Assembly (NCBI RefSeq): GCF_045037415.1
Contig: NZ_CP173438.1
DNA length: 64,000 bases
From: Escherichia coli
GTDB lineage: Bacteria; Pseudomonadota; Gammaproteobacteria; Enterobacterales; Enterobacteriaceae
Strand: one strand, 5' to 3'
Positions 17,529 to 37,072 of this stretch are shown here, in pieces. How positions within the stretch are numbered: the first letter of the stretch is position 1; each line of letters begins with the position of its first letter. The position numbers and the translations under genes were made by a program. Under the pieces are notes generated by a model. It did not search any database, had not been told where the DNA came from, and worked only from the letters and a program-made list of their open reading frames with translations.

Positions 17529-18539
17529 TTATCGGTAATACACTTCGAAGGTGGCAACAGAATTAACCCGACCACTTTTGACGCTACCCATTTTGATGTA
17601 GCGTGCTTTTAACGGAATAGTAACATTTTGATTTAACGTCGTTTTTTGAACAGGTGTATAGTCTGTATCAAATACCATCACATTGTTATTACTATCGAGG
17701 ATCTGCAGACCAACTCCTTCCGCCATTCCTGAACCAGACTCAATATTAAGAATATTATTACCCGTTACTCCAGTAGAACCTGATGAAGTAAAGCGGTAAT
17801 CAACTTTTACATCCTGAGAACATTTTTCAATCTGAATTTTAAACCGATCATCGGAAACTACAGGTGACACATTGTTAACATCAAAATCATCTGTGCCAAT
17901 ATCATTGAGTGGAACGGTAATATTTTTTTCTATAAGGTCGCATGTGCCCGGTTGAATATTGACCGGAACAGAACTAAAACGAAGCTCTCCAATAACACGA
18001 TTGTCATACTTCCAGTCAGCAACCAGTTTGCTGGTATCAATGGTCCCATTACCGACAGGTCCTGTGACAATAAACTGAATAGCTGCATGTATTGTAATCG
18101 GATAACCATATCCTTTAATCACTGTTGACGAGCCTTTATGCCAGGGCGTCATTAAATATCCGGCGGTGAGTTGCGCACTGGTGTTATTCGCCCACGCCGC
18201 GCGAAAACCGATTCCTGGCACATTAGTCTGAAACACATTGTTAAGTGGGTTATCAGTACGCATATCACCGTTTGTCAATACGGTATATCCTTGCCAGATC
18301 TCACCATTTGCCGTACAGGAAACTGAAATTGACGGACTGTTCGCATTTACTGTCGCAATAATCGTTCCAGGAACGGCATCGCTATTAACAACCAACGCAG
18401 GCACGGAGAATTGTACTGTTGCCGGATTTCCTCCATTTCCAGAAATGTTACAACCGGCGAAAACCTCAGGAATGACGCCCCAGCTAAGAAATATTATGGT
18501 CAATAATGTTCGTATATAAGAGACGAATCCTGGCTTCAT
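17529..18539 (-). CDS. fimbrial adhesin-like protein (two-domain tip subunit), last gene of accessory chaperone-usher operon
   Basis: 336-aa translation with signal peptide and pilin-type C-terminus ...ATFEVYYR; longer than a structural pilin, consistent with lectin + pilin domains. Confidence 0.75.
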   Translation of the reverse strand: MKPGFVSYIRTLLTIIFLSWGVIPEVFAGCNISGNGGNPATVQFSVPALVVNSDAVPGTIIATVNANSPSISVSCTANGEIWQGYTVLTNGDMRTDNPLNNVFQTNVPGIGFRAAWANNTSAQLTAGYLMTPWHKGSSTVIKGYGYPITIHAAIQFIVTGPVGNGTIDTSKLVADWKYDNRVIGELRFSSVPVNIQPGTCDLIEKNITVPLNDIGTDDFDVNNVSPVVSDDRFKIQIEKCSQDVKVDYRFTSSGSTGVTGNNILNIESGSGMAEGVGLQILDSNNNVMVFDTDYTPVQKTTLNQNVTIPLKARYIKMGSVKSGRVNSVATFEVYYR

Positions 18540-18560
18540 TATTTTTTCCTGTCTTATTTG

Positions 18561-21038
18561 TTATCGGCAATCCATTGTGGCTTTATAGATACCCGTGGTG
18601 TATTTTTCTGGCACTGTGACAACTCCTGTACATTGCTGGTTAATCTCTTTTCCCCACTGTACCGTAAATGTCATTGATTCTTGCACACCAGTAATATAAA
18701 CCTCCCCATCTTCACCAACAATCGCTGTACTATTCCCTAATGTCAGCAATGCCCCAAAGGGTACGCGTTCTTTATTATGGACTAATGTCAACAAGGCTCG
18801 TATTCCGCTACGTGCATCAAAATCGACACCAACAACAGCCCCTTTCGAAGGAATAACATCTTGTGTGGCATCAGAAATATCAAGACTATCGTGCCCCTGT
18901 GTATTCACAGTAATAGCGTTATGTCGATAATTCGTCATATTGGGAACAATCGCGTTTCCCCAATAATCAGTATAAACGCCTTGCGCATTTTGTACTTTTA
19001 CATTGGCACCCTCATTAATATGCACGATCGCGAATGAATCCTGCACTGATTGCCCCAATGTTACTCCATGAGCATGAGCAACCACCGCACCTTGCGCACT
19101 GTAATTCCACTGACGACTATTTTTATCATAGCTATATCCCAGACCGAATTCCCCCACTGAGCTACGATAACGTCCATTCATGCTGGCATCATAACCCACA
19201 TTATTATCAGTATAACTTTGCTGTAAATTATAACTCAGGTTGTTATCTTGCAGAGCAGTACCGCCAATTCCCAATTGATGTGATGTATTACTTTTATCGG
19301 AACGGTTTACGTTATACATCGCCCATGAATCTGGCAGCCAGCGAGAGAGAGGAATATTGAGTGTTAATGAAAATTGCTGCTCACCAGCCATTCCTGGCGT
19401 TTTCGTTAGTGTGTAATTAACAGACCAATTAATGTTACTCCAGGTCGTACTGTATCCCATTCCTATACTGCGTTCGGCCCCATGCATTCCCCAATAATCC
19501 TGTTGATAACCGTTAAGGTAGACCGAGCCCCAACGACCAATATTTTGTGAAAGATTAATTTGTAAACGATTACGCCGATTATTTGTCTGTCGATAACTGT
19601 AAATACCCTTGTCATCAGGTGTATCACGTTGATCAAGTGCTTCCTGGAAAGTGTAAAATTGTGATGTAGAATAACGATAACTTGCCAGAGTTACTGTCGT
19701 ATCAGTGTCTGGAAAATCTTTCGCATACTGTGCACGCCATGACAGTCCTGTAGCATCATCACGCCCATCATCAAACTTCGTTTCTGCTGCGGTGATATCA
19801 ACAGATACCGACCCCAGACGGCCTAAATCAGCGCCAATCCCTGTCACACCAGAATGATAAATTGAGGCACCAAGTATGCCGCCATAAATCGTTATTCCAT
19901 AGGGCAAGCCATATATCGCGGTTGCAACACCAAAAACAGGTGTCTCAGCATGATTATCGTTGTCACGGTATTTTCCAGTTGCAAGACTATATTTTAATGC
20001 GCCTTCTCGCTGTAGAATTGGAACCGTTGAACTGGCCTGAATAAAACTGTGTTCTTGCCCGTTGGTTTCTTTGATGGTGACTTCCAGATCGGCCCCCGCC
20101 GTTACCTGGCTTAAGTCTTTAATTTCAAATGGCCCTGCCGATACCCACGTTTGGTAAATAACATAGCCGTTTTGTTTAATCACAACTTGTGCATCGCTGT
20201 TGGCAATACCACGAACCACTGGCGCAAAGCCTTGTTCGCTGTCAGGCAGCATACTGGTGTCCGTTTCAAGCTTTATACCTGTCATCTGCACACTGTCAAA
20301 AAGATCGCCATTTGTGAACGTCTGCCCGACTTCCATCTGGCTTCTTAATGCTTTGATATCGCGTTGCAAACTGGTGCTGATCGACTCCCAACTGGAGTCA
20401 CTGTAAACGGTATTATTTCGTAGCCGCCATACGCCTAAATTAATCCCTGAATTTAAATTCAACCAATTTGAATTCAGGTTATCGCCATCACTGTTTTGCC
20501 GGGAACCACTGGCGTAATAACTTAACCAAACCGCACTCTCACCATCACTCCAGTATTTCGGTGAAATACTCCCTGCGGCCCGCGCATTCTGATAGATTTG
20601 CGGGATCCGCAGACACAGCGTTTGGCTGTCTAACTGGAAATCATAACGTGCGCCATCAATAATCTGAGCAATATCACCAAACTCAGTGTCATCATCCATT
20701 ACTTGTAACGCGGGAATGTCGTCAACTTTAAGACCGAACTCACGGAGATCCGCCTTTGTAAAACGAGGGATGAGCCTTTTTTTATCCGAAGACAGAATGA
20801 AGGTAATATTTCTCTTATCAAGATACTCTTGCCCCCACATAACAGAGGTAAGATATACTCCCGGAGTTAAGTTATTATTATTAACAAAATCCTCCAGCAC
20901 TTGTGTATTTTCAAGTGGGCTATCCAGCTCCAGGATACGAAGGTTAAATTCATCTCGTGCATAGCTCAATGAATACACTGCCGATAATGCAAATGTTATC
21001 CCAGTTAAGACAAATGTGCGATGCAATGGTAGCAGCAT
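18561..21038 (-). CDS. fimbrial outer membrane usher protein
   Basis: 825-aa translation with usher features (N-terminal signal, plug and barrel segments, C-terminal Cys pair). Confidence 0.85.
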   Translation of the reverse strand: MLLPLHRTFVLTGITFALSAVYSLSYARDEFNLRILELDSPLENTQVLEDFVNNNNLTPGVYLTSVMWGQEYLDKRNITFILSSDKKRLIPRFTKADLREFGLKVDDIPALQVMDDDTEFGDIAQIIDGARYDFQLDSQTLCLRIPQIYQNARAAGSISPKYWSDGESAVWLSYYASGSRQNSDGDNLNSNWLNLNSGINLGVWRLRNNTVYSDSSWESISTSLQRDIKALRSQMEVGQTFTNGDLFDSVQMTGIKLETDTSMLPDSEQGFAPVVRGIANSDAQVVIKQNGYVIYQTWVSAGPFEIKDLSQVTAGADLEVTIKETNGQEHSFIQASSTVPILQREGALKYSLATGKYRDNDNHAETPVFGVATAIYGLPYGITIYGGILGASIYHSGVTGIGADLGRLGSVSVDITAAETKFDDGRDDATGLSWRAQYAKDFPDTDTTVTLASYRYSTSQFYTFQEALDQRDTPDDKGIYSYRQTNNRRNRLQINLSQNIGRWGSVYLNGYQQDYWGMHGAERSIGMGYSTTWSNINWSVNYTLTKTPGMAGEQQFSLTLNIPLSRWLPDSWAMYNVNRSDKSNTSHQLGIGGTALQDNNLSYNLQQSYTDNNVGYDASMNGRYRSSVGEFGLGYSYDKNSRQWNYSAQGAVVAHAHGVTLGQSVQDSFAIVHINEGANVKVQNAQGVYTDYWGNAIVPNMTNYRHNAITVNTQGHDSLDISDATQDVIPSKGAVVGVDFDARSGIRALLTLVHNKERVPFGALLTLGNSTAIVGEDGEVYITGVQESMTFTVQWGKEINQQCTGVVTVPEKYTTGIYKATMDCR

Positions 21039-21104
21039 AAATTCCCTTGCGCCCGTAATATTATAAATACAGATCGGTTATTTATAGTAATACACTTCGG
21101 TGAT

Positions 21105-21821
21105 TTATAACTTTTGTTGTCGTTTCCCAGAACTTGAACCGTAGTCAGTTATCACCGACCATTCAACAATACTTCCCGCTCCGACAGGAAGACTAAACCG
21201 CTGCTCAGAAAATGGTCCTACCATCATCAATAATGCGCCAGGTTCAGATTTGCTCTCGGTGGGAACAATATTTTTTCCCGATACTGTCAGATCACTGAAT
21301 GAAATATAAAAAGGCGTTGGATTTTTTACTATGAGCTTCCCCGCTTCTTTATGGAACTTAAGTTTTTCCCATGCAGTGAGAGCATCACTATTATCCAAAG
21401 AAGCTGGCCGCCAAAATAATTTAAGCCGGGCTTTCATTGCAAATTGCAAGGTATTTCTATCTTTTAGTTCTTCTGGCATCGCAGAAACAGATTTTATGTT
21501 TGCCAGAAACAAACTTTCCCTATCCTGAGGAAGTTTGTTTTTATCACCTGTAAATACAATATGGAGTAATGTTTGCCGATTTTCTTCAAGTTTATAAACT
21601 GGAGGCGTAATGAGAAAGGGGGCTTTAGAGCCATCAATATTACTCACCCAGCTTTGCACCAAATAGCGTGCATATGCATCTTTATTTTTTAATGTGATTT
21701 GAACTTCATTTTGATTTGAAGGATAGATAATACGTGTACCGCCAAGAACAATACTTGCCTGAACTTGCAATGCCGTAAGAAGAAACGTAAAACCTAAACA
21801 AACTCGAGAAAAAACTGACAT
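21105..21821 (-). CDS. periplasmic fimbrial chaperone (PapD-like)
   Basis: ORF 21105..21854; start placed at ATG 21821 (MSVFSRVCLGF... signal peptide), preceded by ggaggg 8 nt upstream. Confidence 0.8.
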   Translation of the reverse strand: MSVFSRVCLGFTFLLTALQVQASIVLGGTRIIYPSNQNEVQITLKNKDAYARYLVQSWVSNIDGSKAPFLITPPVYKLEENRQTLLHIVFTGDKNKLPQDRESLFLANIKSVSAMPEELKDRNTLQFAMKARLKLFWRPASLDNSDALTAWEKLKFHKEAGKLIVKNPTPFYISFSDLTVSGKNIVPTESKSEPGALLMMVGPFSEQRFSLPVGAGSIVEWSVITDYGSSSGKRQQKL

Positions 21822-21866
21822 AAATAACCCTCCGTGGTCAAACAGTCCTTTCAAACACTATGAATA

Positions 21867-22433
21867 TTAGCGATAAAATACTTCGAACGTCGCAGATGAG
21901 GCATACTTACCCGCAGTCGGCGCGTTATTACCAACCTGAATAACATTGGCGGTGTAATTGAATATTGTTGGAGTAATGCTCCCGGCATTATCAACATCAG
22001 TGGATGCATCGGGAACTGAACCATCAAATTTCACATCGTTAGCACCGCCATTTTTATTTGTCACCGTAATACCCACATTTGTTGCACTGCCAGCCCCAGC
22101 TTCGCTATTTTCCAGACGCAGGAAACCTGCATCCGTTGTCGTTCCAGAAAATGTCAGGTTTAGTTTGTCCACCAACGGATCGCATTTTATTAATTCAATT
22201 TTAAAATCTTTTGACGTTCCAATACTACCGTCTCCAGAATAGTCCGCTGGGTAAGTATCTGCAAAAGTGACTGTCCCTGTTGTACTGGCAGACTCGTTTA
22301 CATTAATTTCGCAAGTATCGGCAACAATTTTACCGTTAAAGTTAACCACTCCGGTATCTGTAGCAAATACACTGGTACTTACTACAGCGATGAGACTTCC
22401 TGACACTAACAGAGAAAGCAATTTTTTATTCAT
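21867..22433 (-). CDS. major fimbrial subunit (type 1 pilin-like), first gene of accessory operon
   Basis: 188-aa translation, signal peptide, Cys pair, C-terminal ...SSATFEVFYR donor-strand motif. Confidence 0.85.
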   Translation of the reverse strand: MNKKLLSLLVSGSLIAVVSTSVFATDTGVVNFNGKIVADTCEINVNESASTTGTVTFADTYPADYSGDGSIGTSKDFKIELIKCDPLVDKLNLTFSGTTTDAGFLRLENSEAGAGSATNVGITVTNKNGGANDVKFDGSVPDASTDVDNAGSITPTIFNYTANVIQVGNNAPTAGKYASSATFEVFYR

Positions 22434-22734
22434 AAAAATCCCTTAATTATGAGGTAATACACATGATTCCATTCCAGAGCGACTGGTCAGGGCTTGATAA
22501 ATATTGATATTAGAAATATATCCACCAAATAATATTATTTTTAGATTAGAACAAAAAACACATAGCCTGTCTATACAAACTGCAGTAATAAAACAATAAC
22601 CACATGAATTTTAAAGTGTTGTTTTTATTTTAAGAGTTTAAGGTAATAAAATATAACATAAACCCAAAATATATATTAATGGTCGTATATTCATTAAATA
22701 AATATTTATTTGGTTTATCTAAATGATTTCATTA

Positions 22735-30794: not shown

Positions 30795-32192
30795 ATTTTT
30801 ACCCGAGTCGCTAATTTTTGCCGCAAGGTGCTAAGCCGCGAGGAAAGCGAGGCTGAACAGGCAGTCGCCCGTCCACAGGTGACGGTGATCCCGCGTGAGC
30901 AGCATGCTATTTCCCGCAAAGATATCAGTGAAAATGCCCTGAAGGTAATGTACAGGCTCAATAAAGCGGGATACGAAGCCTGGCTGGTTGGCGGCGGCGT
31001 GCGCGACCTGTTACTTGGCAAAAAGCCGAAAGATTTTGACGTAACCACTAACGCCACGCCTGAACAGGTACGTAAACTGTTCCGTAACTGCCGTCTGGTG
31101 GGTCGCCGTTTCCGTCTGGCTCATGTGATGTTTGGCCCGGAGATTATCGAAGTTGCGACCTTCCGTGGACATCACGAAGGTAACGTCAGCGACCGCACGA
31201 CCTCCCAACGCGGGCAAAACGGTATGTTGCTGCGCGACAACATTTTCGGCTCCATCGAAGAAGACGCCCAGCGCCGCGATTTCACTATCAACAGCCTGTA
31301 TTACAGCGTGGCAGATTTTACCGTCCGTGATTACGTTGGCGGCATGAAGGATCTGAAAGACGGCGTTATCCGTCTGATTGGTAACCCGGAAACGCGCTAC
31401 CGTGAAGATCCGGTACGTATGCTCCGCGCGGTTCGTTTTGCCGCCAAATTGGGCATGCGCATCAGCCCGGAAACCGCCGAGCCGATCCCACGCCTGGCAA
31501 CCTTACTGAACGATATCCCACCGGCACGTCTGTTTGAAGAATCGCTGAAACTGTTGCAAGCGGGCTACGGTTACGAAACCTATAAGCTGCTGTGTGAATA
31601 TCATCTGTTCCAGCCGCTGTTCCCGACCATTACCCGCTACTTCACGGAAAATGGCGACAGCCCGATGGAACGCATTATTGAGCAGGTACTGAAGAATACC
31701 GATACGCGTATCCATAACGATATGCGCGTGAACCCGGCGTTCCTGTTTGCCGCCATGTTCTGGTACCCATTGCTGGAGACGGCACAGAAAATTGCTCAGG
31801 AGAGCGGCCTGACCTATCACGACGCTTTCGCACTGGCGATGAACGACGTGCTGGACGAAGCCTGCCGTTCACTGGCGATCCCGAAACGTCTGACTACGCT
31901 AACTCGCGATATCTGGCAGTTGCAGTTGCGTATGTCCCGTCGTCAGGGTAAACGCGCATGGAAACTGCTGGAGCATCCTAAGTTCCGTGCGGCATACGAC
32001 CTGTTGGCCTTACGAGCCGAAGTTGAGCGTAACGCTGAACTGCAACGTCTGGTGAAATGGTGGGGTGAGTTCCAGGTTTCCGCGCCGCCAGACCAAAAAG
32101 GGATGCTTAACGAACTGGATGAAGAACCGTCACCGCGTCGTCGTACTCGTCGTCCACGCAAACGCGCACCGCGTCGTGAGGGTACTACATGA
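30795..32192 (+). CDS. pcnB: poly(A) polymerase I
   Basis: ORF 30774..32192; established PcnB N-terminus (M)[12 protein letters not shown] corresponds to an ATT codon at 30795-30797 (known non-canonical AUU start); basic C-terminal tail. Confidence 0.85.
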
Positions 32193-32668
32193 CAGTGGCG
32201 TATATTGCCATAGGCAGCAATCTGGCCTCTCCGCTGGAGCAGGTCAATGCTGCCCTGAAAGCATTAGGCGATATTCCAGAAAGCCGCATTCTTGCCGTTT
32301 CTTCGTTTTACCGCACCCCACCTCTGGGGCCGCAAGATCAACCCGATTACTTAAATGCCGCCGTCGCGCTGAAAACCACTCTTGCCCCTGAAGAGCTACT
32401 CAATCACACACAGCGTATCGAATTGCAGCAAGGTCGCGTCCGTAAAGCTGAACGCTGGGGACCGCGCACGCTGGATCTCGACATCATGCTGTTTGGTAAT
32501 GAAGTAATAAATACCGAACGTCTGACCGTTCCGCACTACGATATGAAAAATCGTGGCTTTATGCTGTGGCCACTGTTTGAAATTGCGCCGGAGCTGGTCT
32601 TTCCTGATGGAACGATATTAGAAAACTTATTAAGAAAAAATAAATTTCATGAATTAAATAAATGGTAA
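32189..32668 (+). CDS. folK: 2-amino-4-hydroxy-6-hydroxymethyldihydropteridine pyrophosphokinase
   Basis: 159-aa translation ([15 protein letters not shown]...). Confidence 0.95.
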
Positions 32669-33015
32669 TGTAACAGTAACGTGAATATAAATAAATTCCG
32701 AAAAATAACCTCACCCTATTGAAATTAATACACCCTCTCAGTTACAATCATAATTAATATTATTTTTTCGCCCCCCCACCCCATCTCACATACAATACTT
32801 TTCCCGCTGTGTATATTAACTTTTGCTTAAAAATGAATTAAGTGGATATTTAAATTTAAATGTGTACATTATTCTACTTAGTGATGAACAGATGTTAAAT
32901 TCAGTAAATCTTCACATTCATCATTAACAAACTAATCTCTTTTCCTCTATCGGGAATCCCTGCCTGAAAGGGCCCAATTGTAGTTAAACTCATGGAATAT
33001 GATTCAAGGATTTTT

Positions 33016-33600
33016 ATGTCTAAAAAATTAGGTTTTGCGCTCTCTGGTCTTATGCTGGCAATGGTTGCAGGTAGTGCTTCTGCAGATATGGACGGTGGTC
33101 AGTTAAATATCAGTGGTCTGGTTGTTGATAATACCTGTGAAACCCGCGTAGACGGCGGTAATAAAGATGGCCTGATCCTGCTGCAAACTGCAACCGTTGG
33201 AGAAATCTCTGAGGGTGTGCTGGACACTACCGTTGGTGCTAAGGCTAAACCATTCAGCATTACTGTTGACTGTAGTAAAGCTAATCCGGCACCAGGCAGC
33301 ACAGCAAAAATGACTTTTGGTTCAGTCTTCTTTGGTAACAGTAAAGGAACCCTGAATAATGACATGTCAATTAATACTCCATCTGACGGTGTTAATATTG
33401 CTCTGCACAATATTGAAGGTTCTACTATTAAGCAGGTTAAAATCAACAATCCTGGCGATATCTATTCCAAAGCACTGGATGCAACTTCCAAATCCGCAAC
33501 TTATGATTTTAAAGCGTCTTATGTTCGTGCAGATGCAAGTCTGGCAGCCACAGCAGGTTATGTAAAAACTAACACTGCATATACCGTTACTTATCAGTAA
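33016..33600 (+). CDS. yadN: fimbrial major subunit-like protein YadN
   Basis: ORF 32992..33600; start moved to [23 protein letters not shown] signal peptide; pilin C-terminus ...TYQ. Confidence 0.85.
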
Positions 33601-34471: not shown

Positions 34472-37072
34472 GTGACTATAAAACCAACTAAAAATTATCA
34501 CAATCATCTGACCCGTATCGCCACGTTTTGCGCGCTGCTGTATTGCAATGGTGCTTTCTGTGCTGAACTTGTTGAATATGACCATACCTTCCTGATGGGG
34601 CAGAATGCCTCAAATATTGATCTCAGCCGGTATAGTGAAGGTAACCCCGCTATACCGGGTGTGTACGACGTTAGTGTTTATGTCAACGATCAACCTGTTA
34701 TTAACCAAAGCATTACATTTGTCGCAATTGAAGGAAAAAAGAACGCACAAGCCTGTATCACACTTAAAAATTTATTGCAGTTCCATATTAATTCTCCCGA
34801 TATAAACAGCGAAAAAGCCGTTCTGCTTGCCCGGGATGAAGCTCTCGGCAATTGCCTCAATTTGACGGAAATTATCCCTCAGGCTTCCGTTCGTTATGAC
34901 GTTAACGATCAACGTCTGGATATAGACGTTCCTCAGGCCTGGGTAATGAAAAATTACCAAAACTATGTTGATCCATCGTTATGGGAAAATGGCATTAATG
35001 CAGCCATGTTGTCATACAACCTCAACGGATATCATAGTGAAACCCCTGGTCGAAAAAATGACAGCATTTATGCTGCTTTTAACGGTGGGATGAATTTGGG
35101 TGCATGGCGGCTGCGTGCCTCAGGCAACTACAACTGGATGACCGATTCTGGCGGTAATTATGATTTTAAGAATCGGTATATACAGCGTGATATCGCCTCA
35201 CTACGCTCTCAATTCATTATTGGTGAGTCTTATACGACGGGCGAAACCTTTGATTCCGTCAGTATCCGAGGCATTCGCTTATACAGTGACAGCCGCATGT
35301 TGCCTCCGACATTAGCCAGCTTTGCGCCTATCATTCATGGCGTTGCCAATACCAACGCCAAAGTCACTATTACGCAAGGTGGCTATAAGATTTATGAAAC
35401 GACGGTGCCGCCAGGCGCTTTCGTCATTGATGATCTGAGTCCATCAGGGTACGGCAGTGATCTTATTGTTACCATCGAAGAATCCGATGGCTCAAAGCGG
35501 ACATTCTCGCAACCTTTTTCATCGGTCGTTCAAATGTTACGCCCTGGCGTTGGACGTTGGGATATTAGCGGCGGCCAGGTCTTAAAAGATGATATTCAGG
35601 ATGAGCCTAATTTATTTCAGGCCAGCTACTACTACGGTCTGAATAACTATCTGACGGGTTATACCGGTATTCAGATTACCGATAATAACTATACCGCTGG
35701 TTTGTTAGGTCTTGGTCTGAATACTTCGGTCGGTGCATTTTCTTTCGATGTGACTCACTCCAATGTTCGTATACCGGATGATAAAACATACCAGGGGCAA
35801 AGTTATCGTGTTTCCTGGAACAAGTTATTCGAAGAAACAAGTACTTCACTGAATATCGCGGCCTATCGCTATTCGACACAGAATTATCTTGGTCTTAATG
35901 ATGCACTAACTCTGATTGATGAAGTGAAACATCCAGAACAAGATCTTGAACCGAAATCCATGCGTAATTACTCGCGCATGAAAAATCAGGTTACAGTCAG
36001 TATTAACCAACCGTTGAAATTTGAAAAAAAAGATTACGGTTCTTTTTATCTTTCTGGTAGTTGGTCCGATTACTGGGCTTCCGGACAAAATCGTAGCAAT
36101 TACTCCATTGGCTACAGTAACAGTGCATCCTGGGGCAGCTACAGCATCAGTGCACAGCGTTCATGGAATGAGGACGGCGACGCTGATGATAGCGTTTATC
36201 TCAGTTTCACCATTCCTATTGAAAAATTACTTGGCACTGAACAACGTACTTCAGGTTTCCAGAGTATCGATACTCAAATGAGCAGTGACTTTAAGGGTAA
36301 TAACCAACTCAACGTCAGTAGCAGTGGCTATAGCGATAACGCTCGCGTCAGTTATAGCGTGAATACTGGCTATACGATGAATAAAGCCAGCAAAGATTTG
36401 AGTTATGTTGGGGGTTATGCCAGCTATGAATCACCGTGGGGAACTCTGGCAGGTTCAGTTTCTGCAAACAGCGATAACAGTCGTCAAGTTTCTCTCAGCA
36501 CCGACGGTGGTTTTGTATTGCATAGTGGCGGCCTGACCTTCAGTAATGACAGTTTTAGCGACTCCGATACACTGGCGGTAGTTCAGGCTCCAGGTGCTCA
36601 AGGAGCGCGAATAAATTATGGCAACAGTACTATCGATCGATGGGGTTATGGTGTCACCAGCGCTCTTTCTCCTTATCATGAAAACCGTATCGCGCTGGAT
36701 ATCAACGATCTTGAGAACGATGTTGAATTAAAAAGTACCAGTGCTGTAGCTGTGCCTCGTCAGGGTTCTGTCGTTTTTGCTGATTTTGAAACCGTGCAAG
36801 GGCAATCAGCCATTATGAACATCACACGTAGTGATGGCAAAAATATTCCATTTGCTGCAGATATTTATGATGACCAAGGCAATGTCATTGGTAATGTTGG
36901 ACAGGGTGGACAGGCTTTTGTTCGTGGTATTGAACAGCAAGGAAATATCAACATTAAATGGCTCGAAGAAAGTAAACCTGTAAGTTGTCTTGCGCATTAT
37001 CAACAAAGTTCAGAAGCAGAAAAAATAGCGCAATCTATTATTCTGAATGGAATTCGGTGTCAGATTCAGTAA
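34472..37072 (+). CDS. htrE: fimbrial outer membrane usher HtrE
   Basis: 866-aa translation; GTG start read at 34472. Confidence 0.9.
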   Translation: MTIKPTKNYHNHLTRIATFCALLYCNGAFCAELVEYDHTFLMGQNASNIDLSRYSEGNPAIPGVYDVSVYVNDQPVINQSITFVAIEGKKNAQACITLKNLLQFHINSPDINSEKAVLLARDEALGNCLNLTEIIPQASVRYDVNDQRLDIDVPQAWVMKNYQNYVDPSLWENGINAAMLSYNLNGYHSETPGRKNDSIYAAFNGGMNLGAWRLRASGNYNWMTDSGGNYDFKNRYIQRDIASLRSQFIIGESYTTGETFDSVSIRGIRLYSDSRMLPPTLASFAPIIHGVANTNAKVTITQGGYKIYETTVPPGAFVIDDLSPSGYGSDLIVTIEESDGSKRTFSQPFSSVVQMLRPGVGRWDISGGQVLKDDIQDEPNLFQASYYYGLNNYLTGYTGIQITDNNYTAGLLGLGLNTSVGAFSFDVTHSNVRIPDDKTYQGQSYRVSWNKLFEETSTSLNIAAYRYSTQNYLGLNDALTLIDEVKHPEQDLEPKSMRNYSRMKNQVTVSINQPLKFEKKDYGSFYLSGSWSDYWASGQNRSNYSIGYSNSASWGSYSISAQRSWNEDGDADDSVYLSFTIPIEKLLGTEQRTSGFQSIDTQMSSDFKGNNQLNVSSSGYSDNARVSYSVNTGYTMNKASKDLSYVGGYASYESPWGTLAGSVSANSDNSRQVSLSTDGGFVLHSGGLTFSNDSFSDSDTLAVVQAPGAQGARINYGNSTIDRWGYGVTSALSPYHENRIALDINDLENDVELKSTSAVAVPRQGSVVFADFETVQGQSAIMNITRSDGKNIPFAADIYDDQGNVIGNVGQGGQAFVRGIEQQGNINIKWLEESKPVSCLAHYQQSSEAEKIAQSIILNGIRCQIQ

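Follow-up and report, generated by a model that had tools for sequence, protein, structure and literature searches.

A length-polymorphic poly-C tract in the folK-yadN spacer of Escherichia coli, probably not an on/off switch of Yad fimbriae in its C7 form

Background

Does a run of seven cytosines in front of a fimbrial operon of Escherichia coli switch that operon on and off? The question arises from a stretch of 64,000 nucleotides of an E. coli genome (RefSeq assembly GCF_045037415.1, contig NZ_CP173438.1), called the window here, in which open reading frames (ORFs) on the plus strand place pcnB, folK, a 347-bp spacer, yadN, yadV, htrE and the remainder of the yad operon in that order. The sequence-only reading of the window that preceded this work had described the spacer as an AT-rich fimbrial promoter region of about 350 bp, likely bound by H-NS, with a C7 run in a T-rich setting. 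It had also raised, as speculation, the possibility that changes in the length of this run make fimbrial expression phase-variable, with the caution that C7 is short. Yad fimbriae aid tissue colonisation by extraintestinal pathogenic E. coli in bloodstream infection (PMC13245861), and no paper mentioning a poly-C tract at yad was found in the literature searched. Comparison of the tract across genomes indicates, with a probability that we put at about 70%, that it is a repeat of ordinary kind within a regulatory region already known and that C7 is no on/off switch of Yad in the allele of the window; the site itself is a real length-polymorphic repeat, ranging from C6 to C13 among close relatives.

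Results and Discussion

Tract length in the allele of the window

The C7 mononucleotide repeat lies on the plus strand at 32771..32777, 102 bp past the folK stop codon, 239-245 bp upstream of the yadN ATG and outside any ORF. On the same strand it adjoins a T6 run (32763..32768), which is T2, T7 or T8 in sister alleles, and is directly followed on its 3' side by ACCCC (32778..32782), which is kept in all three tract-bearing sub-alleles; the local sequence, T6-CG-C7-A-C4, is a short GC-rich island within AT-rich DNA, and had been read correctly to the base. The tract is locally conspicuous, being the only C or G run of at least 7 in the window, and a run of this kind appeared in 0.2% of 5000 mononucleotide shuffles of the spacer. 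Yet a first-order Markov model of the window leads one to expect about 3.8 such runs per 64 kb where one is observed, and one C7 per 64 kb is no anomaly in itself.

When positions 32560-33120 were compared by megablast with 5426 complete E. coli genomes, 428 genomes matched at 99% identity or more, 138 matched at 95-99% and about 500 carried a related allele at 80-90%; in the remaining genomes, K-12 derivatives included, the match does not start until about 28 bp short of the yadN ATG (in the K-12 strain DH1, at query base 429). The spacer and the 5 kb around it are identical to those of EC958, a strain of sequence type 131 (ST131), and the RefSeq annotation of a genome identical to the window here gives the same folK, spacer and yadN. 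This EC958-type allele is found in 419 of the 5426 complete genomes, several of them labelled O25b:H4-ST131. The K-12 setting in which the sequence-only reading had placed the operon does not fit, the K-12 spacer being strongly diverged and free of any C run.

Tract lengths were counted as exact matches to queries of 86-89 nt, in which any single difference puts identity below 99%. Among the 407 genomes of EC958 type with identical flanks (12 of the 419 have other differences), 397 carry C7, eight carry C6 and two carry C8, so that C7 is kept in 97.5%. A sister allele, SE15-type, which has a 5-bp deletion beside the tract and includes the clade A reference strain SE15, carries C8 in 130 genomes, C7 in four and C9 in none. 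In the same genomes a control run within htrE (36024-36031) is A8 in 548 of 550, A7 in two and A9 in none; with this coding A:T run as the reference, C7 varies roughly sevenfold more often (Fisher odds ratio 6.9, p = 0.006) and is thus a mutational hot spot of modest degree. The two A7 variants, in strains IPCEC42 and Nord8, would frameshift the usher gene and are either true loss-of-function variants or assembly errors. Metagenomes yielded only eight matches, too few for population statistics: three C7, one C8, one C7 in the C8 allele, two related alleles without the tract and one unrelated sequence.

The behaviour of a one-base variant can be followed in a patient with recurrent urinary tract infection, whose isolates U12A (2012) and U15A (2015) carry C7 and whose isolates U13A (2013) and U14A (2014) carry C6. 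These genomes are PacBio assemblies that were polished with Illumina reads for homopolymer indels (PMC6692316), and the 2013 and 2014 isolates represent a separate, co-existing sublineage in that patient (Forde et al., PMC6692316). Polishing and the published sublineage split together make C6 a real mutation, a single event that was then passed on for at least eight months. A mutational hot spot behaves in this way, whereas a switch flipping once in some hundreds of generations would not. Over 40 kb around the tract in two C8 and two C6 genomes, the differences of each from the window come down to one or two single-nucleotide polymorphisms (SNPs), the tract change and a 6-bp repeat difference at 22618 that all four share, and no other homopolymer indel was found in that 40 kb in any of the four. 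C7 would then act like any 7-nt G:C run in repair-proficient E. coli, undergoing rare one-base slips, mostly contractions, that are stable afterwards.

Long tracts in a sister lineage

Longer tracts occur in close relatives. L1PEag1, one of the genomes that match the spacer poorly, has T8-CG-C13 at the position of the tract, and a search based on it recovered three more complete genomes: PM06121 (T7-CG-C13), A42 (T7-CG-C11) and SCU-124 (T7-G-C12). One of these four strains comes from a plant, one from seawater, one from a marsupial and one from a healthy student. Over 40 kb the window and PM06121 share 99.5% identity, the yad operon being almost identical, and to judge by this the PM06121 lineage is a sister lineage sharing the yad allele of the window. 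Exact-protein look-ups supplied four extra long-type sequences: the YadV protein of PM06121 (324 blocks of the collection) led to C13, C13 and C12 and to a contig that starts exactly past the tract, and the exact YadN look-up (29,367 blocks of the collection) led, among the sequences compared, to one further C12 beside seven C7 and two C8. The long type therefore numbers eight sequences (C13 in four, C12 in three, C11 in one), and about 700 bp flanking the tract are otherwise identical in the four complete genomes.

The presence of at least 11 cytosines is not in itself technical, since it recurs in eight independent assemblies; to our knowledge, a run of 11-13 cytosines is beyond the usual range in E. 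coli. Variability increases with length, from about 2.5% at C7 and 3% at C8 to about 50% at C11-C13, as slippage predicts. The same repeat would have drifted to C8 in the SE15-type allele and expanded to unstable C11-C13 in the sister lineage. Comparison of tract length across genomes, which the sequence-only reading had proposed, thus gives a divided answer: the tract is nearly invariant in the EC958-type allele, but C8 in the SE15 type and variable C11-C13 in the sister lineage mean that it is not invariant across strains at the level of the allele family.

Draft contigs of the long-tract lineage, assembled from short reads, begin at the base after the poly-C run, and there are nine similar places besides. 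A long tract breaks assemblies and could therefore hide from surveys of draft genomes.

Two SNPs, at 32745 and 32796, flank the tract. The sub-alleles combine them as T..C, C..T and C..C and the outgroup as T..T; since all four combinations occur, the sequence within about 50 bp of the tract must have undergone recombination or recurrent mutation. In the ST131 strain 1434 a G-to-A change at the equivalent of 32770, directly beside the tract, converts T6-CG-C7 to T6-CA-C7.

Position relative to the yadN promoter

That the folK-yadN spacer is the regulatory region of the yad operon, as the sequence-only reading had supposed, agrees with what is published on its silencing. The operon is repressed by H-NS in CFT073 and EC958, deletion of hns raises expression of all yad genes in EC958, and chromatin immunoprecipitation sequencing detects H-NS binding at yad in CFT073 (PMC13245861); H-NS silencing of yad has also been shown for K-12, where the spacer counts among the H-NS-associated 'promoter islands' (PMC3661553). 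The supposition that the region is likely H-NS bound gains direct backing from EC958, for which repression is published and whose spacer is identical (PMC13245861). The yad genes are induced by serum and in infected tissue (Ellison et al., PMC13245861), and overproduction of SlyA raises yadN (PMC5797941). In CFT073, promoter activity that H-NS represses and serum induces needs no more than some 200 bases upstream of yadN, and derepression of the CFT073 yad reporter exceeds 100-fold (PMC13245861).

The -200 position of CFT073 aligns to 32831 in the window, and the tract, at -239 to -245, is outside the fragment by plain distance too. By alignment with the roughly 200 bp upstream of CFT073 yadN, the presumed core yadN promoter and 5' untranslated region (UTR) would occupy 32831..33015 on the plus strand. 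The best sigma-70-like match, TTGAAA-18-TACAAT (32719..32748, plus strand), is a weak one with 10 of 12 positions; if it is used, the tract would fall at about +8 to +27 of the transcript. Promoter-like sites in the consensus scan are at chance level and uninformative (three, compared with 2.6 in shuffles), and the scan contained no -35/-10 pair flanking the tract. Since no such pair surrounds the tract and the best site would put it in the transcript, the tract is probably not in a promoter spacer, and any effect on initiation would have to act from a distance.

The folK-yadN spacer may accordingly be pictured as two halves, the first of about 160 nt being the tail of the pcnB-folK unit, ended by Rho, and the last 185-200 bp or so being the yadN promoter, silenced by H-NS and induced by host cues such as serum. 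If tract length affects yad at all, it would do so through the spacing between an upstream site and the promoter or through Rho loading, not through a -35/-10 spacer.

A possible Rho-loading zone after folK

The upstream half of the spacer (32669..32830, plus strand) is C-rich, G-poor and unstructured, and is likely the 3' UTR of pcnB-folK and a rut-like zone. The first 170 nt past the folK stop codon contain 41 C and 13 G, and in all eight diverged alleles compared the C/G ratio of these 170 nt is 2.3-3.2, whereas the last 170 nt are balanced. The 78-nt stretch at 32720-32797 holds 24 C but 3 G, which puts it among the window's most biased stretches for C over G. RNA of the upstream half (162 nt) is essentially unstructured (minimum free energy -8.4 kcal/mol, z +0.29), and a scan of the spacer found no intrinsic or hairpin terminator after folK. 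The sequence features expected of a Rho-dependent terminator are thus present together: an untranslated stretch of about 80 nt, C far above G, little structure and no intrinsic terminator. These are the features of rut sites at the ends of operons, a likeness that here is one of sequence. The pcnB-folK operon of K-12 is described as Rho-dependently terminated (Mohanty and Kushner, PMC1636475); no mapped 3' ends were found for the locus, and the supplementary tables of PMC7815308 have no folK/yadN entry. Because the composition is conserved despite turnover of the sequence, it suggests that the upstream half is a Rho-loading zone that ends pcnB-folK and keeps read-through from the silent yad operon. 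The C run would be a local extreme of a base composition that selection maintains in any case, and slippage-prone runs would arise easily in such a C-rich background.

One could go further and propose that the C run is kept as part of the Rho-loading site, where it insulates yad, so that its length would tune termination and not initiation. Polycytidine is the best ligand of Rho, and this proposal, which we regard as possible but doubtful, draws on the same observations: no hairpin terminator in the scan, a C/G ratio of 2.3-3.2 in every one of the eight alleles and 24 C to 3 G around the tract, spacer RNA without notable structure, and the description of pcnB-folK as Rho-terminated, although that statement may itself rest on the missing hairpin terminator and not on a direct test (PMC1636475). 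Alleles that lack the C run hold the same bias of C over G, however, and the run itself is therefore dispensable; neither 3'-end nor bicyclomycin results for the locus were found in the data searched.

Phase variation by tract length

The proposal that the poly-C tract is a contingency repeat, in which slipped-strand changes of length switch or tune yad, with C7 and C8 as 'locked' forms and C11-C13 as fast-switching ones, is unlikely in our estimation. In its favour are the range from C6 to C13 among closely related alleles, the three lengths in eight sequences of the long lineage against flanks of about 700 bp that are identical in its four complete genomes, the greater variability of C7 than of the A8 control, and an adhesin operon downstream that contributes to virulence (PMC13245861). 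Against it are the constancy of C7 in 97.5% of 407 genomes and the stability for at least eight months of the one C6 that can be traced; the tract also lies 239-245 bp from the ATG, outside the CFT073 promoter fragment of about 200 bp and with no -35/-10 pair around it. Most yad alleles of E. coli lack the tract yet have the same H-NS regulation, and Yad has been called 'not phase-variable' (PMC13245861). On the alleles aligned here, the tract cannot be a general mechanism of yad control, because K-12 and most other E. coli alleles have no C run. The suggestion of phase variation by C7 thus finds no support for the allele of the window, and the accompanying caution that C7 is short was justified.

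Two features expected of a contingency locus lead to the same view. Several lengths at appreciable frequency are seen only in the long-tract lineage and not in the C7 and C8 types, and a hypermutable repeat length likewise only there, the window having C7, the SE15-type allele C8 and only a rare sister lineage C11-C13. Most proven contingency loci with G:C runs have nine or more. Screens of G:C runs for contingency loci use more than 8 (PMC1891110).

A near parallel in favour of a function is the 'C-stretch' of Bordetella fim2, fim3 and fimX, also a poly-C run upstream of the gene for a fimbrial major subunit. For fimX, B. pertussis has C7, B. parapertussis C9 and B. bronchiseptica C13 (PMC1891110), as yad has C7, C8 and C11-C13, and C7 and C8 alleles there differ in transcript level (PMC1891110), so that a short tract in one lineage does not exclude function. 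The Bordetella tract, however, is inside the promoter, between the BvgA or 'fim box' and the -10, and has a demonstrated effect on transcription, whereas the yad tract, some 240 bp away from the start codon, falls beyond the fragment sufficient in CFT073 and is 97.5% invariant in the allele of the window. Nearer in geometry are the distal TAAA repeat of Neisseria meningitidis nadA and the poly-T 'rheostat' of Helicobacter pylori sabA, simple repeats upstream of the core promoter that act on the spacing or the DNA shape separating distal sites from RNA polymerase (PMC2791445, PMC4081817). This geometry is, by comparison, the only one by which the yad tract could affect initiation; nadA and sabA have defined operators (NadR, IHF) or an adjacent -35 and measured effects of repeat number, while the yad tract is known as a sequence alone. 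In view of the fimX parallel, a role of the tract in tuning yad expression keeps some probability, but a low one, and lower still for the C7 of the window itself.

A different likeness is to the polymorphic intergenic mononucleotide repeats that Gur-Arie et al. in 2000 and Diamant et al. in 2004 reportedly described as strain markers in E. coli: these too are non-coding mononucleotide runs whose length varies by lineage and is stable within clones. Yad belongs with yeh, sfm and elf/ycb among the H-NS-silenced, cryptic chaperone-usher fimbriae, and the ST131 allele adds to that system a GC island, CG-C7-A-C4.

Assembly error and other alternatives

Might the length variants be errors of sequencing or assembly, the tract being invariant within each lineage? 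Homopolymer indels are a known class of error, and the 454 draft of EC958 had 15 (PMC4134206). Deletions prevail among the variants (eight C6 to two C8, and four C7 to no C9), as they do in nanopore data, SCU-124 has two more odd indels within 700 bp, and one metagenome variant, the C7 in the C8 allele, rests on a coverage of 1.1. This explanation is nonetheless hard to sustain, because U13A and U14A, which were polished for indels, share C6 where the same patient's U12A and U15A carry C7, in agreement with the published sublineages. The four variant genomes have no further homopolymer indel in 40 kb, the A8 control varies in just two of 550 of the same genomes, and at least 11 cytosines are present in eight independent assemblies.

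More remote still is the idea of lineage-tuned control of Yad in phylogroup B2, in which C11-C13 slips often and changes yad expression, the short forms of ST131 are nearly locked, and the C6 and C8 variants were selected. The route would be the phasing of a conserved upstream box or H-NS nucleation site relative to the promoter, or Rho loading on transcripts that read through or have a long 5' UTR, and the U13A/U14A sublineage of the patient with recurrent infection would be a selected expression variant.

That the spacer holds an invertible promoter like fimS or a Dam-methylation switch like those of pap and agn43 can be dismissed, since the search for inverted repeats recommended by the sequence-only reading gave only short AT-rich pairs, of which the one exact pair, the 9-nt arms GATATTTAA and TTAAATATC (32845-32853 and 33103-33111), consists of AT-rich 9-mers in AT-rich DNA and has its second arm within the coding part of yadN, the yad operon has no recombinase gene beside it, the matches of at least 99% identity, among those listed, are each one collinear piece bar one IS1 insertion and include no inverted copy, and there is no GATC between 32478 and 33173. 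The fimS switch of type 1 fimbriae and the Dam/Lrp switch of P fimbriae belong, like yad, to chaperone-usher operons of the same species; the parts of the former (9-bp inverted repeats with FimB/FimE) and of the latter (paired GATC with PapI/PapB) are absent at yad.

The single IS1 is in the ST131 strain AZ 186, within yadN codons 3-6 (equivalent to 33023-33032), where the target AAAAATTAGG is duplicated and the major subunit gene is inactivated. It was considered as a promoter insertion and set aside, as the element is outside the spacer.

Several points weigh against the view that the tract is an ordinary repeat and C7 no switch. The strains behind the published verdict that Yad is not phase-variable have no long tract, and the description of Yad as a whole was drawn from alleles in which the C tract is missing (CFT073, K-12) or short (EC958). 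Where the tract stands with respect to the true promoter or promoters is transferred from a CFT073 construct of diverged sequence. Part of the roughly sevenfold difference in variability between C7 and A8 may reflect selection on a coding A:T control and not mutability. The lengths C11-C13 given by assemblies may be partly technical, because homopolymers of this length are difficult to call and further odd indels occur in SCU-124, and the role of Rho is drawn from composition, unstructured RNA and a statement in the K-12 literature.

Spacer alleles and neighbouring features

The spacer (32669..33015, plus strand; 347 bp) has 31.4% GC, compared with 50.3% for the window, and its 200-nt windows go down to 28.5%, so that the AT content of the yad promoter region is well above the genome average (31% versus 50% GC), much as had been described. 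On the same strand it is preceded by folK (HPPK; 32189..32668), the last gene of the pcnB-folK unit, whose stop codon TAA ends at 32668, and followed by yadN (33016..33600), the major Yad fimbrial subunit gene, and then by yadV, htrE, yadM, yadL, yadK and yadC, as ORFs and annotation agree. A longer alternative ORF for yadN starts at 32992; the Shine-Dalgarno sequence AAGGA (33006..33010, plus strand), kept in all alleles, suits the ATG at 33016. An Rfam search of 32400-33200 at E <= 1 matched no family.

Alignment of representative alleles places the start of divergence inside folK, about 18 codons before its stop codon, from where it spans the whole spacer. No C or G run of at least 5 is present in the other alleles aligned, namely those of K-12/DH1, O104:H4, the CFT073 type and two types nearer the window. 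The C-terminus of FolK is lineage-dependent: the K-12 protein ends in EMLRQILHTRAFDKLNKW, and the last 18 residues encoded by the window (32611-32668) differ. A recombination boundary of the yad 'island' seems, from these alignments, to lie within folK, an essential housekeeping gene.

An 11-nt box, GAATATAAATA (32683..32693, strand unspecified), begins 15 nt past the folK stop codon and is invariant across all eight strongly diverged spacer alleles; it is possibly a protein-binding or H-NS nucleation site. A match to the H-NS motif TCGATAAATT at 32688-32697, within the region of this box, has two mismatches and is not above chance. The motif count for the whole window is 81, against about 65 in shuffles, of which one in 100 reached 81; a single site with two mismatches is indistinguishable from this background, and we give it no weight.

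Elsewhere in the window, position 22618 has one copy of TTGTTT, compared with two in four other ST131 genomes and PM06121. The site is in the spacer upstream of a four-gene chaperone-usher operon (about 17529-22433, minus strand) in the fhuA-mrcB interval, an operon that CFT073 does not have.

Conclusions

The regulatory spacer is one of the most divergent parts of the yad locus, and its poly-C tract shows that the length of a short homopolymer in one genome should be read together with that of its orthologues in sister lineages. It is also a warning, for assemblies break or miscount there. If tract length does affect expression, differences in Yad production between strains would be accounted for and the control of E. 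coli fimbriae would gain a repeat-based mechanism; were the tuning of Yad by lineage in phylogroup B2 to prove true, it would be a repeat-based fimbrial switch in a species known for switches by inversion and methylation. In the more likely case that length has no effect, the tract can still serve to mark lineages at fine scale within ST131 and among its relatives.

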